Origin: an uncultured Candidatus Saccharibacteria bacterium
GTDB lineage: Bacteria > Patescibacteriota > Minisyncoccia > UBA6257 > GWB1-50-10
Direction of reading: 5' to 3'
NCBI GenBank assembly: GCA_964365955.1
Contig: CAYISA010000005.1
Location: 751 to 64,750 of the forward strand
Length of the DNA: 64,000 nucleotides
Made by a program: the position numbers and the translations under genes. The first letter of the stretch is position 1. Every line of letters begins with the position of its first letter. Below, in pieces: positions 2,608 to 23,967 of this stretch. The notes under the pieces are model-generated. The model ran no database searches and was not told the DNA's origin. It worked only from the letters and a program-made list of their open reading frames with translations.

Positions 2608-5600
2608 TTACTCCACTTTTCGTAGCGCGATCCACAAGGGCCATTCCTCGAATTTCGTCTCAAGTTCTACCGTGAATCGCTTTACACGTTTATACTCGAT
2701 TGCTTTTGCGTTTACTTCTGTCCCAATATTTTTGCGATTTTTTTCAATAAACGGGATAAGCTCTTTGCACTCGACATGGATTACAATCCTATTCTTCGGT
2801 TCCAGCTTCGCGTCCTGCCGCAGATCCTGCACCAAACGGATAAACTCGCGCACAAGTCCTTCTTCCTTTAGCGCTGGCGTTACACGAATGTCGAGCTCAA
2901 TCGGACGTTTGATGTCGTTATCCACGTAGGCATTTTTTACATTCACCTCTTCCGAGAGAAGCACCATCAGTTCTTTGTTTCCCCACAGATAGTTGTTCTC
3001 CGTTTTCACGCGCAGCATCTGAAGCGGCTGGCGCACTTTAATCGCCGCTTCGGCGCGCTTCGCAAGCGCCAAACTTGCGAACTCGCGGATCTCTGTCATG
3101 CCTTTAATCAGTTTTTCATTCGTCAGCGCTTTTTTCATTTTTGGCCAGTCCGTCAGATGGACCGAAAGCGTCTTGTTCCCCTCTGACACCAGCGATTTAT
3201 AAAGCGCCTCGGAAAAAAACGGCATAAAGGGCGCGAGTAACTGGCTTAACACATAAAGACAGTGTCCCAGCATTTTTGACGCCGCTTCATGGTCCGCCTG
3301 TGTTTCCGGTTTTTGAAGACGCCGTCGCGAGCGGCGAATATACCACCGGGAAAGATCTCCGGTAAATATTTCGATTGTTCTCCCAGCGGTTCCGGGGTTA
3401 TAAGCATCCATCGCTTTTGTGACACTCTTCGTTGTTTCCTCAAGGCGCGCCAAAATCCACCGGTCAAGAACGTGCTTCGGATTGCCTATAGTGAGCGGGA
3501 AATTGAATTTTTTGGCATAGGTTTCGTAAAAAATGAACGAATGATAAACCATCAGCACGAACTGGCGCAGGGTTTTTCCGAGTTCTGCTTCGTCGAATTT
3601 TTTTGGTTCGCCGGGCGGATTTACTGTAAACAGATACCACCGCACCGCGTCCGCTCCATACTTTGCGATCACCCCCCAAGCGTCTACCGCGTTCCCTTTC
3701 GATTTGGACATTTTCTGCCCGTTCTTATCAAGCACGTGTCCCAAACAGATAACATTTTTGTAAGGAGTTGTTTTATCTAAGAGGATGGACTCGGCAAGCA
3801 GGGTATAGAACCAACCGCGCGTTTGATCTACCGCTTCTGAAATATAATCAGCAGGAAAATCTATTTTTTCTTTTGCAAAAGGATAGTGCGCCTGTGCAAA
3901 CGGCATCGCGCCGGAATCAAACCATACGTCCGCCACTTCCGGAATGCGCGTCATGCGTTCGTGGCATTTTTCGCAAGGGAATGTTACGTCATCCACATAT
4001 GGGCGATGAGGGTCCGCGAAGTTCCAGCCGTTCCGCGGAAGCTTCAAAAATGGAACTTTGCGAAATTCCGTCGTCTCGATAAAATCATTACCACGCTTTT
4101 CTTTCTCCGTAATCGCCCGTTCTTCACCCCATCCGCTCATCACGGTCTGCATCATCCAGACGGGATACTCGTGACTCACAACCAAAATAGTTTTTCCTTC
4201 GTATTTTTTCTCGAGTGTTTCAAGACCTTCGTAAACGCGCTTCGCAAGATCGCGGAGTGATTCGCCTTTTGGCGTCCGTTTTGTAAATTTCTCCGCATAG
4301 GACGAAAAATACGCGTGATAGTCCTCACCCTTTTTTCCGTCAAAAATTCCTGTATTTATTTCGCGGAATTTTTTCTCGAAAATTATCTTTTTGATTCCCA
4401 GTTCGCTTGCGACAATTTCCGCCGTTTCGCGGGTGCGGCGAAAATCCGACGCTACGATGATATCAATATTTTCTTTTTTCAGTTTTTTTGCGGACCGTTC
4501 GGCAATAACGCGTCCTTTCAGGGTAAGGGGGTATACATTCCGCTTTGCAGGACTACTATTTATTTTTTTCATCAAGATATTTTGCGGTTCACCGTGCCGC
4601 ATTAAAATGTAGCGATTTTTAGCGCCTCCCTGCAATTGGCTTAATTCTTCATACCCACCTACCGCGCGCACTCCCCCACATTTTTTGCACTCCCAGAGCG
4701 GAAGCGGAGTGCCCCAGTAGCGTTCGCGCGAAATCGCCCAGTCCTTCACTTCGCGGAGCCACTCGCCAAACCGGCCCTCCTTCACGGATTCCGGAACCCA
4801 GCGGATTTTTTTGTTTTCCCGAAGCAATTCTTTGCGGAATTTGCTCATCGCGATAAACCAGGAGTCCCGCGCGTAATACAAAAGCGGTGTATCACACCGC
4901 CAGCAAAACGGATAGTCGTGCTTGTAAGGTTCCGTACGGAGCAAGAGCCCCTTTTTCTCCAGATCGTCCACAATCTTTTTTTCCGTCTCCTTGGCTTTAA
5001 CGTACATGCCTGCATATGCCGGAACGTCACTGGTGAATTTTCCTTGCAGGTCCACCGTGTGGTGCTGCGGCAGGCCAACCTCCTTTCCCAGATTGTAATC
5101 GTCTTCTCCGTACATCACTGCCGTGTGGACTACGCCCGTGCCATCTTCTGCCCCGACAAATTTTGCCGGATAGATTTTGTACGCCGCGCTTGATTTTTTA
5201 AACGCCTCAACGGAAAAAAGGGGTTCATAGGCGAGCCCAACCAGATCTTTTCCTTTTACGCTCGCCACAACGGTGTGTGGATCTTTCAAAACCGAGAGAC
5301 GATTCGTCGCAAGAATATAAATTTCTTTTTTCTTTCCTTCTCCCACGTTCACAACGGAATACTCGATATTCGCCCCCACCGCAAGCGCGACATTCCCCGG
5401 CAGTGTCCACGGCGTGGTCGTCCACGAAAGCACGTAGGTGGAAGCACCTGACCCCGCTTTTCTACCCACAGACTGCCCCTTCTTTAGCTTAAATTTGATG
5501 TATACGGAGGTTTCTTCCACTTCCCGGTATCCTAAGGCGATCTCGTGAGATGAAAGCGCCGTACCGCACCGGGTGCACCATGCCACCACTTTATGGCCTT

Positions 5601-6163: not shown

Positions 6164-6598
6164 TTGTATAATAGAGTTATGGAAACTCACCCATCTATCC
6201 GCAACGTAAACGAAGAGCATCGCCAGAAACTTTCGCGGCTGGATAAATTTGCGCTCTGGATCACGTGTCACGTGGGCACTACTGGATTTTTCCTTCTGAT
6301 TGCCTTCTGGACAGCGCTCTGGCTTCTGTGGAATACGTTCGCCTCACATGAATTGCGTTTTGATCCGTTTCCGGCATTCGCGCTCTGGCTTTTTATCTCG
6401 AATGTCATACAGATTTCCATTCTCCCTCTTATTATGATCGGGCAGAATCTTGAATCGCGCCATGCGGAACTGCGCGCGCAGGCGGACTATGAGGTGAACA
6501 TCAAGGCGGAACAAGAAGTGAAGGTGATAATGGAACACTTGGAGCGTCACGACAAAATGCTCCGTGAGATACTTCAAAAAACGGAGAAGCAAAGCTAA
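6164..6598 (+). CDS. DUF1003-like small membrane protein.
   Basis: Two hydrophobic helices and a C-terminal coiled-coil region, typical of the DUF1003 architecture. Confidence 0.55.
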   Translation: MYNRVMETHPSIRNVNEEHRQKLSRLDKFALWITCHVGTTGFFLLIAFWTALWLLWNTFASHELRFDPFPAFALWLFISNVIQISILPLIMIGQNLESRHAELRAQADYEVNIKAEQEVKVIMEHLERHDKMLREILQKTEKQS

Positions 6599-8263
6599 CT
6601 ACATCTTTTCGGGCGCGGAGATTCCTAGCACCCGGAACAAGTTTTCAAATACTTGGATGGTGGCGCATACCAACCCCAACCGCGCCTGCGCTAGTTTTTC
6701 TTCTTCTCCTGCCACGCGTTCACGCTCGTAAAATATCTGGAATGCCCGCGCTAATTTTATGGCGTAGCGCGGAATACGATGCGCTTGGATGTCATTCGCC
6801 GTGTCCGCAACGATTTCGGGAAACTCCGCGAGCGCAAGCATAAGCCGCATGTCTTCCTCCGTGTGGAGCAAATTCCAATCCGGCCTTCTCTTTATTTCTA
6901 CCGCCTTCTCTTTAATTCCGCGCGCGCGAACATAGGCGTACTGCACGTAAAAAACGGGATTTTTGGATGAGTGTTCTTTCGCAAGTCCCAGATCAAAATC
7001 CATATGCGTTTCGGGTGCGATCATCAAGAAAAAGAACCGTGCCACATCTGCCCCCACATCGTTCACTAGTTCTTCGAATGTTATGAACTCGCCTTTCCGC
7101 TTCGACATCCTTGCTTCTTCTCCGTTTTTTATGAGTCGTACCGCCTGCGTAATCAATACGCGCGAATTCGCAAGCCCCAGAAGTTTTGCCGCCGCTTGGA
7201 TACGCGCTACATAGCCATAATGATCGGGCCCTAAAATATTAATCTTTCCCGTAAAACCGCGATCCTTGGTTTCCAGATAATGGCCGGCGTCCGCCAGAAA
7301 ATAGGTCGGCTCTTTTTCGCTCGTAACAAGGACCCGATCTTTATCGTCTCCATGCTCCGATGTTTTAAGCCACACCGCGCCGTCGCGCTCATATGCGGCA
7401 CCGGCTTTCTTGAACGCCGCAAGCGTTTTTTCGACGAATCCTTTAGCCCGAATATCGTTTTTTTCCGACGTATACCGATCAAACCGAATCCCGGACTTCT
7501 TCTCGATCGTCGTTTTGATCATCCCCAGAAAATCTTGCGCGGCCACCTCTCCCACCGCCTCGGGATTGTTTTTGTTTTCCGAAACGAATTTTTTATGCCC
7601 CGCACTCCACTCCGCGATGTAGGCGCCTTTATAGAACTCGTCTTCCTCGGGAGTATGTCCTTGCGACGCAATGATGGATTTTCCTAAAATAAGCACCTGC
7701 CGACCCATATCGTTTACATAATATTCCCGCTCGACTTCTATTCCAGAAAACGCGAGTGTGTTTGCGATCACGTCGCCCAAAAATCCGCCGCGTCCGTTTG
7801 CGAGCGTAAGGGGCCCCGTCGGGTTCGCGGAGATGAACTCCACCTGAATTTTTTCTTTTGTTTTTTTCCCCGCTCCGTAATTCTTTTTTTCTTTCAGAAT
7901 CACTTCAAGTTCCTTATAAAATGCGTCGGGTGCAAGCCAAATGTTTATAAATCCAGGCGCTACTGCTTCGGCTTTTGCTATTAATTTAGAAGCTTTGTTC
8001 TTTATTTTTTTTACAATATCTTCCGCAATCAAAAGAGGTGGCTGCTTACGGATTTTGGAGAACGAAAACGCAACGTTGGTGCTATAATGTCCGCGGTTTT
8101 CTCCGCTTGCGGTTGGTTCCGAAACCGCAATCTTAAAAGGAGTCGGTCCTTCAACCGCCTCTTCTAAGACCTTATGAATTTCCTCGCGTAGCATAATTCC
8201 ATTTAACACCAAATCATTCTCCTTTTCCATTGCCGCTTTATGGTACGCTACAAGAGATGCCAC
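6599..8263 (-). CDS. argS: Arginyl-tRNA synthetase.
   Basis: SANPTGPLTLANGRGG (HIGH region equivalent) and a DALR anticodon-binding C-terminus. The start may instead be at 8230. Confidence 0.9.
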   Translation of the reverse strand: MASLVAYHKAAMEKENDLVLNGIMLREEIHKVLEEAVEGPTPFKIAVSEPTASGENRGHYSTNVAFSFSKIRKQPPLLIAEDIVKKIKNKASKLIAKAEAVAPGFINIWLAPDAFYKELEVILKEKKNYGAGKKTKEKIQVEFISANPTGPLTLANGRGGFLGDVIANTLAFSGIEVEREYYVNDMGRQVLILGKSIIASQGHTPEEDEFYKGAYIAEWSAGHKKFVSENKNNPEAVGEVAAQDFLGMIKTTIEKKSGIRFDRYTSEKNDIRAKGFVEKTLAAFKKAGAAYERDGAVWLKTSEHGDDKDRVLVTSEKEPTYFLADAGHYLETKDRGFTGKINILGPDHYGYVARIQAAAKLLGLANSRVLITQAVRLIKNGEEARMSKRKGEFITFEELVNDVGADVARFFFLMIAPETHMDFDLGLAKEHSSKNPVFYVQYAYVRARGIKEKAVEIKRRPDWNLLHTEEDMRLMLALAEFPEIVADTANDIQAHRIPRYAIKLARAFQIFYERERVAGEEEKLAQARLGLVCATIQVFENLFRVLGISAPEKM

Positions 8264-8714: not shown

Positions 8715-9053
8715 GGGGATGCTGGGCTTTGACAGGGTGCGGAATTGTAAACTTGCAAGCCGAGCCGAACGTCTCGTAAATCCGTTCAAACAACAAAACT
8801 GCCAACAAAACGGCGGCTCCTGCATTCGCTTTCGCGTAATGTAGGGGACCCCCGACCATTTAGCGTCGGGGCATCGGCCCCTCACGCCTTCTAAGGGATC
8901 GCCGGTGTTATAAGAAGGCCCGCGCACGCGAACTTGTTTCGTAGGTCGCGCGCGTTAAACCAAACGAAACAAACTTGTTTCTTTTGAGACTAAGCTTGTA
9001 GAGAGTTCATGAGGATCCACCTTGGACGTCGGTTCAACTCCGACCATCTCCAC
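8715..9053 (+). ncRNA. ssrA: tmRNA (ssrA).
   Basis: 5' GGGGAUGCUGGGCUUUGACAGGG matches the tmRNA 5' consensus. 3' T-arm GUCGGUUCAACUCCGAC then CAUCUCC-A closes a 7-bp acceptor stem with a G3:U wobble (Ala identity). Internal tag frame ...ANKTAAPAFAFA ends at TAA 8837-8839. It lies immediately downstream of smpB. Confidence 0.8.
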
Positions 9054-18130: not shown

Positions 18131-19559
18131 GTTCTTTTATACTGGTGCCCTCGGGCCGATTCGAACGGCCATCACCTCCTTCGGAGGGAGAGATCCTATC
18201 CATTGAACGACGAGGGCTAAGCCCCATCATTATTCCCAAGAGCAGCCAAAACATCAACCGACCAGCTTGCAGGTCCCAAAAATAATGATCCGCCATTGCC
18301 ATCACAAGAAAAGAAATAAAAAGTGAAAACATAACCACTATTTCCACCGGGAACATCCCTTTTGTCTGCCGCAACGTGATCCACCCCGCGACCCCCAGAT
18401 ACGCAAGAAATATCAAAAAAACCGCGAGCGCCGGAAAACCCGCTTCTGTAGCGATCAGAATAAAAAGATTGTGCACGGGCTGCCAGTTCCAGAATTCCTT
18501 TTCGGTAATTCCTTCGTCCTGATAAAACCCCCGCCCCACTCCATACGCAACTTGGTTCCCCAACCCGACTCCCGACGGCCGCTCTACAATCGTTCGAATC
18601 CCGATCGTGTTATAGAGGACGCGGTACTGGAACGAAGGATCGGTTTGAATTGGAATCGCCGCGCGGGGTAAGACCAGATGCCCAAATGCCGCCAAAAGAA
18701 ATACGGCGATCGCGACTATGCGCGCGAAAAGGAGCAGTACAGGAAACCGCATTTCTCTAATCCATAGTCCCAATAGAACAACAAAAAACGTCATAATGCC
18801 GGCGCCAATCCATCCAGAACGAGAAAAGGAAAATAAAAGTCCCGTACTCACAATAAGAATTCCGGCTCCGATTGCGATTCTCCGCACGGAGAATTTTTTT
18901 GTTGCTTCGCTCAAAAAAAGATAGTAGAGCGCCGCAAGCCCCAGAACCAAAAACGCGGCATAAATGTTTGCGTGTGGGAATGTCCCGTAGGAACGGAGCA
19001 GAAAACCGCCGTCCACCAAAGCCCTTCCTACGTTCTTCGTGGCGCCGGTAATAACCGACTCCCCCAAAAACCACAACCCAACGCTTTTTTGAAATATGGA
19101 CTGAAAAATTCCTACGAGCCCTTCGAGTACCGCAGTCCCGGCAATCGCGGTTGCAACACTTGCGAAAGAAATTATTTTTTTAAAAAGCAAAGTCATGGCA
19201 GCAACGCCAGCGGCAACCGCAAGAAACAGGCGCGCATAAAGAAATAAGCCCGGAAACGACAGGGGTGTATACCAAACGGTCACGAGCACAAAACAAAAAA
19301 ATAAAAATAACAGGGTTTGTGCTTTTTTATTTTTCGCAAAAACTGTTCCGGCGTCTTCCCAAATATTTTTCGAAAAAAGAAACAGAAAGAGAAACAGGAC
19401 AGCGGTCATATCCGTCAAAAACAAAAACACAGCCGAAAATTCCTGAAACCTCGGAAGATTCGTGGGCACTTCAAACAAAAACTTTTTTGTTCCGAACGGA
19501 AGGGAGACGAGAAATACGAAAAATGCGAGCGCCAGAGGATTTTCAAAATACTTTTGCAT
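18117..19559 (-). CDS. O-antigen ligase/polymerase-family polytopic membrane protein. The last ~33 codons run through the tRNA-Arg gene.
   Basis: About 12 TM helices with a large loop typical of Wzy_C/WaaL-like proteins. The C-terminal tail SPRRSMDRISPSEGGDGRSNRPEGT is the translated tRNA sequence. Confidence 0.6.
   Translation of the reverse strand: MQKYFENPLALAFFVFLVSLPFGTKKFLFEVPTNLPRFQEFSAVFLFLTDMTAVLFLFLFLFSKNIWEDAGTVFAKNKKAQTLLFLFFCFVLVTVWYTPLSFPGLFLYARLFLAVAAGVAAMTLLFKKIISFASVATAIAGTAVLEGLVGIFQSIFQKSVGLWFLGESVITGATKNVGRALVDGGFLLRSYGTFPHANIYAAFLVLGLAALYYLFLSEATKKFSVRRIAIGAGILIVSTGLLFSFSRSGWIGAGIMTFFVVLLGLWIREMRFPVLLLFARIVAIAVFLLAAFGHLVLPRAAIPIQTDPSFQYRVLYNTIGIRTIVERPSGVGLGNQVAYGVGRGFYQDEGITEKEFWNWQPVHNLFILIATEAGFPALAVFLIFLAYLGVAGWITLRQTKGMFPVEIVVMFSLFISFLVMAMADHYFWDLQAGRLMFWLLLGIMMGLSPRRSMDRISPSEGGDGRSNRPEGTSIKEHEES
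18143..18217 (-). tRNA. tRNA-Arg (anticodon CCG), CCA encoded.
   Basis: Cloverleaf: acceptor GCCCUCG/CGAGGGC, D-loop AAUGGAUA, anticodon stem UCUCC/GGAGG with loop CUCCGAA, T-stem GGCCG/CGGCC with loop UUCGAAU, discriminator A, then CCA. Confidence 0.9.
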
Positions 19560-22997: not shown

Positions 22998-23125
22998 TAT
23001 AAATTGTCTGCACCAAAATAAAAAATCAGAATCTCGATGCCCTGATCAATCCCACCTGCTTCTCCAAAACGTGCATATTTCCATCCCAGAAGTATGGGAA
23101 TTCAATCACATACATATTTAGTATA

Positions 23126-23155
23126 TAAAAAAGCCTCTCGTTTGCACGAGAGGCT
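23126..23155 (-). terminator. Rho-independent terminator (minus strand).
   Basis: agcctctcg-tttgca-cgagaggct hairpin followed on the minus strand by T6. Confidence 0.6.
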
Positions 23156-23212
23156 AAGTCTAAGGGTCTAAGAGACCCGAGGTCATTACTGATGGACGTA
23201 AGCGTCTAAGCG

Positions 23213-23869
23213 CTATTCGTCGCAGTCGCAGAGACACAGGACAACGCCGTCGGAACGCCAGCCAAACTCGAAGTAGCCGAGGTAGAACCGGAAGTCACCG
23301 CCCGAGGCAGCGTCCACGCGCGGCACCCTGTGGTCACCGCCGGAGTCCTGCCAAAGAGCATCTTTCTCATCGAAAGAAACCGTGTACTTTCCTTTCGGAA
23401 GCACATCCTTCTTCAGCTGGTAGACCAGGGACAACCCTTGGGCACCCGTGAGGATCGCGCCGACCGCTTTGTAGAGGCCGAGACAATCGTCGGAGTTGAC
23501 GGTCTTGCGGATCGAGAAGAGTTTCGCTTTGTAGGTTTTCCCGGGGACGAGCTTCTGCGTCGCCTTCCGGAAATTCCTGTCCGTGATCTCATCATTGAAG
23601 TAGTAAAACTCCTTCTTCTTGAGTGTGCTGAGCTACGTTCCGTGGTCGTAGTCCGTGGGGACCGTGATCTTGAATTCCATGAGGAATTCGAATCGAGAGT
23701 CGATCGACGGGAGTTTCTTGCCCGAAAGAAACGCCTCGCGCTGTTCTTTCGTTAAATTGTTGAACCACTCAACTTGAGCGAGGGTCATCTGACCGCTACG
23801 CATCTTCGACAGCATGTCGATTTGCAAACCAGCCAATTTGGCCGCATCTGCGCCGATGATCATCTCCAT
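23213..23869 (-). pseudogene. GC-rich unknown gene interrupted by an in-frame TAG (78 aa, stop, then 140 aa in the same frame).
   Basis: ORFs 23633-23869 and 23213-23632 are contiguous in one frame, separated only by TAG 23633-23635. The final stop is also TAG. The gene has its own consensus promoter and terminator. Confidence 0.5.
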
Positions 23870-23937
23870 CGTTGTACCTTTCTGTTAATGAACACCTAGA
23901 GATTGCTAGGTCAGGCGTACGAGTATCGTACGTTAGA

Positions 23938-23967
23938 ATTGTAGCATGGTAGACGCTATTTTGTCAA
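23938..23967 (-). promoter_or_regulatory. Consensus sigma70 promoter (minus strand).
   Basis: TTGACA (23962-23967), an 18-nt spacer, then TACAAT (23938-23943). An RBS gaaagg lies upstream of ATG 23869. Confidence 0.6.

Follow-up and report, generated by a model that had tools for sequence, protein, structure and literature searches.

A target gene of a diversity-generating retroelement in a Patescibacteria genome, orphaned and most likely inactivated by a fresh nonsense mutation

We analysed a stretch of 64,000 nucleotides (the window) from contig CAYISA010000005.1 of an uncultured Candidatus Saccharibacteria bacterium, and in it a transcription unit encoded on the minus strand, whose open reading frame (ORF) is interrupted by an in-frame TAG. 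The gene belongs to a family of variable proteins, the targets of diversity-generating retroelements (DGRs), and we consider it likely that it is an orphaned Patescibacteria-type DGR target gene that was freshly inactivated by a nonsense mutation and is now a pseudogene. An earlier reading of the locus, made from the sequence alone (the sequence-only reading), had described a minus-strand unit with a promoter, a 78-amino acid (aa) ORF, a TAG, an in-frame continuation, a terminal TAG and a terminator, and all of these were confirmed (Table 1). Two of its details needed correction. The promoter, reported as a perfect consensus, is near-consensus, agreeing in the consensus scan with 11 of 12 consensus positions and carrying an extended -10 TG, and the 140 further codons that were to yield a 219-aa form are 139 sense codons (140 counts the stop), so that a readthrough product would have 218 aa. 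As a class, promoter-like matches are not enriched in the region (3 versus 1.6 expected in the consensus scan). By alignment, a counterpart of the promoter, TTGACG-18-TATAAT, lies upstream of the target genes in two related loci, L002 and L006, and the 3′ untranslated region (UTR) and terminator are kept in L001, L002 and L006, with one compensatory change in the stem. The stretch that follows the TAG stays open for 139 codons in just 0.4% of mononucleotide shuffles. At present the locus is annotated as two small hypothetical proteins of 78 and 73 aa.

Table 1. Features of the minus-strand unit (positions are those of the window; VR, variable region; TR, template repeat; dN/dS, ratio of nonsynonymous to synonymous substitution rates; AF2, AlphaFold)
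Feature	Position	Strand	Details	Basis
Sigma-70-type promoter	23938..23967	-	TTGACA 23967-23962; 18-nt spacer with extended -10 TG, ending TGC; TACAAT 23943-23938	consensus scan
5′ leader, structured and conserved	23870..23935	-	hairpin 1 23932-23916; hairpin 2 23910-23895; Shine-Dalgarno GAAAGG 23882-23877	alignment, fold, covariance model
Codons 1-78, N-terminal helical module and first strand of conserved core	23636..23869	-	start codon ATG at 23869; 78 sense codons before the TAG	ORF list, homologues, dN/dS, AF2 model of P0001
Premature TAG, codon 79, nonsense substitution of Gln codon	23633..23635	-		alignment with homologues
Codons 80-218, remainder of conserved core including the VR	23216..23632	-	139 in-frame sense codons up to the terminal TAG	translation, dN/dS
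VR, codons 172-215	23225..23357	-	133 nt, LWQDSGGDHRVPRVDAASGGDFRFYLGYFEFGWRSDGVVLCLCD	mismatch pattern versus the TRs of L001 and L002
Normal terminal stop TAG	23213..23215	-		same end position as nearest homologues
3′ UTR and intrinsic terminator	23126..23212	-	GC-rich 10-bp stem, 23155-23132, then T-tract (consensus scan)	stem-loop and T-tract
Final conserved cassette bases	23103..23125	-	homology to intact DGRs ends at about 23103	blastn and alignment

Searching 5.8 billion clustered proteins with the fused translation, read across the TAG, returned 206 homologues, all of them uninterrupted, about 210-290 aa long and encoded in Patescibacteria metagenome-assembled genomes (MAGs), among them those of Jorgensenbacteria, Paceibacterota and Nomurabacteria; the best identity was 88%. 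The remark of the sequence-only reading that it recognised no family holds for Pfam, PHROGs and NCBIfam, which gave no credible family for the two halves, the fused protein or 120 family members, but not for the search with the conceptual translation, whose homologues are DGR variable proteins. That the gene is one of these, with a 3′ VR, is the main point the earlier reading missed. No PDB sequence was matched in a profile search, and since a scan of viral contigs found no family member either, there is no sign of a phage-borne cassette. The proteins P0001 (locus L001) and P0002 (locus L002) are 84-88% identical to the window protein, and both loci carry a TR and a reverse transcriptase (RT): downstream of the target gene lies a 133-nt imperfect copy of the gene's own 3′ end, followed by an RVT_1 gene. 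The mismatches between TR and VR fall at TR adenines in 18 of 18 cases in L002 and in 18 of 22 in L001. Between TR and RT there is a bAvd gene (Pfam), which also matches NCBIfam DivGenRetAVD, the match (E = 1.6e-12) falling below the cut-off curated for that family. A target gene with a VR, accompanied by TR, Avd and RT, is the architecture of a DGR.

A survey of GTDB species representatives added 44 loci to L001 and L002, and 26 of these 46 have a downstream TR and/or RT, their mismatches being biased towards adenines. Roughly 42 loci were assessable; in about 16 of them at least 2 kb of downstream sequence contains neither TR nor RT while the gene itself is intact. Orphan copies make up about a third of the family loci. 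At two loci (L033:1579-1700 and L039:6846-6967) an adenine-biased TR lies past the target gene with no RT detected within about 6 kb downstream; these may be partly degraded cassettes. Directly 3′ of the TR we observed a hairpin, CTCCCRC-N6-GYGGGAG (L001 at about 1185-1205, L002 at about 7113-7133, L052 at about 4690-4710), in which one G-C pair is replaced by A-T from cassette to cassette, a compensatory change. The hairpin probably belongs to the TR-RNA element used in priming the cDNA. In the alignment, residues 1-55 of the family are occupied by at least three unrelated types of N-terminal module (for example MEMIIGADAAKLAGLQID..., MAKFSVTGDQYFKIDG... and MATKPIVAGDLYESITG...) on one VR-bearing core; at the level of sequence, these exchangeable N-termini indicate domain shuffling as proposed for DGR targets by Roux et al. 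(2021). The family is consistent with DGR clade 2 of the same study (PMC8144416), a cellular clade restricted to Patescibacteria whose targets typically lack recognisable domains.

The VR of the window gene aligns without gaps with the TRs of L001 and L002. Adenines of the template account for 20 of its 23 mismatches to the L001 TR (binomial p = 3.4e-10) and for 19 of its 23 mismatches to the L002 TR; the other three or four are all at T or C positions, the sort of position at which the two TRs also differ from each other. The mismatches alter 13 residues, nearly all of which are AAC or AAT Asn codons in the TR, and the last ~21 nt of the VR, where the template has no adenines, are the same as in the L001 TR. 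A TR matching this VR, with N allowed only where the L001 and L002 TRs have A, would read, for example, GACTTCAAGTTCAAYCTCGGCAACTTCGAGAATGACTGGAATTCCGACAAYGTYGTCCTGTG. Codon comparisons of the window gene with L001, L002 and L006 gave a dN/dS of 0.06-0.21 for codons 1-78 (dS 0.5-0.7), 0.09-0.14 for codons 80-171 (dS 0.6-0.9) and 1.1-2.6 for the VR, codons 172-215 (dS 0.07-0.20). This is the signature of a DGR target, with a dN/dS above 1 and homogenised synonymous sites in the VR and purifying selection on the scaffold, and the intact control pair L001/L002 shows the same pattern segment by segment. By these values the stretch past the TAG, whose composition the sequence-only reading had called protein-like, bears a clear coding signature, and any relaxation of selection since the nonsense mutation is too recent to detect.

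Two assemblies of the same strain, L001 (ENA ERZ1292626) and L050 (NCBI GCA_964362295.1), hint at what such a gene looks like when it is served by its retroelement. Over 3 kb, 24 positions distinguish the two, every one of them within the VR (L001:577-709 versus L050:6983-7116) and most of them where the TR has an adenine; because the differences are confined to the VR, we take the L001 element to be actively diversifying. One of these differences is a 1-nt indel that leaves the L050 gene call frameshifted to 187 aa; it probably arose as a consensus artefact because the VR is heterogeneous. The VR of the window gene shows no difference between the two assemblies that cover it.

The rest of the retroelement is missing from the window. 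Nucleotide homology to L001, L002 and L006, as followed by blastn and alignments, extends over the promoter, the 5′ leader, the ORF, the terminator and about 30 nt more, and breaks off at about 23103. Past this point L001, L002 and L006 share a further conserved segment and have their TR, Avd and RT, whereas the window continues with a beta-CASP/MBL gene. No copy of a TR was found anywhere in the 64-kb window, and tblastn with two cassette RTs as queries found no RT in it. The Mur-ligase and beta-CASP/MBL genes that flank the unit adjoin no other family member and, because the flanking genes are not shared with other family loci, loss of TR and RT in place is indistinguishable from insertion of a module consisting of the target alone.

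The genome does encode a DGR elsewhere. The MAG GCA_038061425.1 holds the window sequence on contig JBBTZI010000015.1, and an RT search followed by a contig look-up identified a complete DGR on its contig JBBTZI010000001.1 (L052, 2447-6050), which comprises two tandem target paralogues of 283 and 222 aa, a TR at about 4556-4677, a bAvd gene on the opposite strand and an RT of 349 aa. The L052 TR differs from its own two VRs by 13 adenine and 2 non-adenine mismatches and by 17 and 1, respectively, and from the window VR by 20 adenine and 12 non-adenine mismatches (Fisher p = 0.007), at least six of the latter sitting in the adenine-free 3′ segment. Since writing would have erased such non-adenine differences, the L052 element is not the writer of the window VR. 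Judging by sequence, its last writer would be a TR of the L001/L002 type. No TR of this type was found in the genome of the window, the scan covering the 64-kb window and the contig 1 DGR. Of the NCBI-sourced RTs that share 73% identity or more with the L001 RT, P0126 alone comes from this MAG. As a positive control for targeting in trans we considered L039 and L047, which come from one MAG, and discarded them as uninformative: they are 99.8% duplicates over 1.15 kb with identical VRs.

The premature TAG aligns with the Q of a conserved DYDHGTQL motif. Most aligned homologues have Gln at this position, and because the three nearest genes read CAG (L001), CAG (L002) and CAA (L006) there, the TAG is a Gln codon altered at a single base, from C to T. 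No other in-frame stop was found among the 46 related loci, and none in 120 listed proteins. The simplest reading is that the TAG is a very recent nonsense mutation, which bears out the suggestion of a decaying gene made from the sequence alone. Two ways in which translation might resume past the TAG were considered and rejected. The first in-frame start, TTG at 23434, would give just 73 aa, and the ATG that follows an SD-like AAGGAG is out of frame.

The stop could in principle be an error, and the real genome could read CAG: only one base sets it apart from the family consensus, on a low-coverage metagenome contig (cov ~5.5 in the L005 record name). The same base is present, however, in three assemblies made by different pipelines (the NCBI MAG GCA_038061425.1, the Logan assembly of ERR3858116 and ENA ERZ1292638), which are 100% identical over 956-1701 nt, and a sequencing or assembly artefact is therefore very unlikely. 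That the organism might read TAG as a sense codon deserves mention because alternative codes exist in some Patescibacteria lineages, UGA being recoded in Gracilibacteria and Absconditabacteria. Yet 55 long ORFs of the window end in TAA (30), TGA (14) and TAG (11), the last at plausible gene ends that include those of the neighbouring beta-CASP/MBL, RuvB and T2SSE genes; the normal end of the gene itself is a TAG, aligned with the ends of its homologues; and ARAGORN found no tRNA(CUA) in the 64-kb window. Stop-codon usage thus effectively refutes reassignment, which the sequence-only reading had already disfavoured. That reading had also proposed a two-product locus, which would normally yield the 78-aa peptide and now and then, by programmed amber readthrough, the long form (218 aa by our count). 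Residues 1-50 are indeed a distinct helical module, swapped between family members, and an N-terminal fragment could conceivably fold alone. The stop, however, lies inside the conserved core, after TVPxDYxH, and off the boundary of the exchangeable module; it is found at this position in none of the 46 loci and none of the 120 proteins; the 81 nt around and after it fold no better than shuffled sequences (z = +0.52), so that no readthrough-stimulating structure is predicted; and both halves are under the same purifying selection as the intact relatives, as a single recent mutation would leave them. With no suppressor tRNA in the window either, we hold programmed readthrough to be highly improbable.

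A more substantial alternative is that the gene is a working remote target, served in trans by a DGR elsewhere, with the TAG being a minority or transient allele or being bypassed at low frequency. Its promoter, leader, Shine-Dalgarno sequence, terminator and entire downstream frame are intact, the same MAG contains a complete DGR of the same family, and a C follows the TAG. In E. coli, C after a stop is a weak termination context, and one may speculate that tRNA-Gln, decoding UAG as a near-cognate codon, would put the ancestral Gln back. Targets that are not adjacent to their RT are, moreover, a recognised DGR arrangement (PMC8144416). Like such targets, the window gene bears a VR and is distant from any RT, in a genome with a DGR. 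The VR of a live remote target would nevertheless be expected to differ from the TR of its genome at adenines only, and the only TR found has the 12 non-adenine mismatches described above, some of them in the 3′ segment, from which homing starts. The VR is the same in both assemblies covering it, no intact near-identical allele occurs among the 5.8 billion clustered proteins (best match 88%), and there is neither a suppressor tRNA in the window nor a predicted structure downstream of the TAG. On balance we regard a working remote target as unlikely.

Several points weigh against calling the gene a pseudogene, our preferred reading. It has a single disabling lesion, with the promoter, leader, Shine-Dalgarno sequence and terminator intact, and it may still be used, for instance if the population holds an intact allele or if near-cognate readthrough occurs at a low level. 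Orphan status alone is no proof of decay, because the orphan copies in about 16 of the roughly 42 assessable loci, which lack TR and RT and yet are intact, can evidently persist as functional genes. The scan for a second, matching TR covered only the window and the contig 1 DGR, and MAGs are incomplete. Finally, the three assemblies that carry the TAG may share overlapping read sets.

To get clues about the protein we examined the AF2 model of P0001, which is 88% identical to the window protein. The model, which is confident (predicted local distance difference test (pLDDT) score 93), shows an N-terminal three-helix module followed by an alpha/beta domain, in which two helices precede the strands that carry the VR, the last three of the domain. 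Foldseek searches of PDB and BFVD returned, as top matches, almost exclusively C-type-lectin-like domains, but with E values above 0.02; a C-type-lectin fold of the model is no more than suggested. The prototypes of DGR variable proteins with a C-type-lectin fold are Mtd of Bordetella phage BPP-1, TvpA of Treponema and the archaeal AvpA, and, as in these, the VR of the window family is predicted to supply the final strands and loops in a compact alpha/beta domain.

In other respects the family resembles the targets of DGR clade 2 (PMC8144416). Its hosts belong to the Patescibacteria/Candidate Phyla Radiation (CPR), the target is a small protein in which no Pfam, transmembrane or signal domain is recognisable and the VR sits at the extreme C-terminus, and the intact relatives have an AAC-rich TR with adenine-specific mismatches, bAvd and an RT of about 300-350 aa. 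Modular N-termini on a constant VR-bearing domain are shared with DGR targets in general (PMC8144416). Unlike clade 2 cassettes, the window locus is the target module alone, without TR, Avd and RT, its ORF has a nonsense codon, and the sole TR found in the genome does not fit its VR. As in ordinary nonsense pseudogenes, one transition has changed a conserved sense codon into a stop, with the frame and signals otherwise intact, and no evidence distinguishes the window gene from these; it is a very young case, with no further lesions and no detectable relaxation of dN/dS. The locus is thus an ordinary kind of feature, another DGR target gene with a plain nonsense mutation.

The following course of events would account for these observations. 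The target module has a promoter of its own, then a structured leader, an ORF of 218 codons and a terminator. In an intact cassette it is accompanied by a transcribed TR, which the complex of Avd and reverse transcriptase copies with errors at adenines. The resulting cDNA replaces the last ~44 codons, the VR, and so diversifies a probable C-type-lectin-like binding surface. The window copy was presumably served by a TR and RT in the past and keeps the adenine scars of this process in its VR, but the module is stranded, the TR, Avd and RT expected past the terminator being gone. A single C-to-T transition has converted Gln79 from CAG to TAG in the conserved core, so that translation would end after 78 residues. 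The truncated product is presumably non-functional; for the full-length protein, the fold and the role in binding are putative and follow from the model.

Upstream of the target genes the family has a conserved leader of about 68 nt. A covariance model of it (R1) found 17 copies upstream of family members. Outside the window the leader occurs at L002:5934-6003, L006:2169-2238, L052:3489-3559 and L050:6251-6318 and 6406-6473, as well as in L007, L008, L013, L022, L029, L031 and others. Nine of its 11 base pairs change on both sides, and 94% of the cells are paired, compared with 15-46% when the partners are slid. Between the window and L052 the leader is 79% identical and the coding sequence 66-69%. 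No Rfam family matches the leader, which may represent an RNA element not described before, with a cis-regulatory or stabilising role.

The high GC content of the unit, pointed out already in the sequence-only reading, was evident in our analysis as well: its GC is 0.546 and its GC at third codon positions (GC3) 0.749, compared with gene means of 0.483 and 0.514, and it ranks first among the 49 genes of the window in both (z = +4.8 for GC3). The possibility raised there, that the gene was recently acquired, is not supported by the GC content, for target genes exceed the GC3 of their neighbours in every genome checked. In L050 the target has a GC3 of 0.61 and the neighbouring genes about 0.37; in L052 the two targets have 0.70 and 0.71 and the neighbours about 0.49 (RT 0.48, Avd 0.49); in L002 the target has 0.80 and the upstream genes about 0.61-0.69 (RT 0.61), with 0.74 and 0.82 in two downstream genes. 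The target genes compared lie at window positions 23213-23869, L002:6001-6654, L050:6471-7034 and L052:2447-4225. Apart from the two downstream genes of L002, target genes lie 0.1-0.25 above most of their neighbours, their own RT and Avd included. High GC3 is therefore a trait of the family and does not in itself point to recent transfer.

A few further observations concern the locus and its surroundings. A sub-threshold Rfam match to suhB/mmgR was obtained over the 3′ UTR and terminator (23117-23191 of the minus strand; 30.3 bits versus a gathering score of 41, E = 5e-4); it is most likely driven by the terminator hairpin and was judged spurious. On the opposite strand, an antisense ORF of 141 aa (23330-23755, plus strand) is called as a gene in the public assemblies of L004 and L005. 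We do not consider it a real gene: it is the shadow of a GC3-rich sense frame, which is favoured because of its dN/dS of about 0.1. Over the whole window ARAGORN reported two matches only, a transfer-messenger RNA (tmRNA) at 8715-9053 (plus strand) with the tag peptide ANKTAAPAFAFA, and a tRNA-Arg(CCG) at 18143-18217 (minus strand).

A bolder interpretation, which we think improbable, is that the target module, self-contained with its promoter, leader, GC3-rich ORF and terminator, is mobile independently of TR and RT and persists as a binder of fixed specificity, with the TAG as a leaky or reversible gate and the leader as a new class of cis-regulatory RNA. Were this so, near-cognate insertion of Gln at the TAG, in its weak C-following context, would supply traces of the wild-type protein, and the leader class would be specific to Patescibacteria DGR targets. 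With the orphaned, freshly mutated target gene that we favour, an apparent anomaly is removed: the amber codon is a plain nonsense mutation, no unusual decoding is needed for this genome, and the locus should be annotated as a single disrupted DGR-target gene. Small leads for research on DGR regulation come from the 5′ leader with its covarying pairs and from the high GC3 across the family. For the biology of these ultra-small groundwater bacteria, the finding means that a DGR target is its own transcription unit, separable from TR, Avd and RT, and that at least one orphan has been caught at the first step of decay, with a sister element in the same aquifer visibly diversifying.

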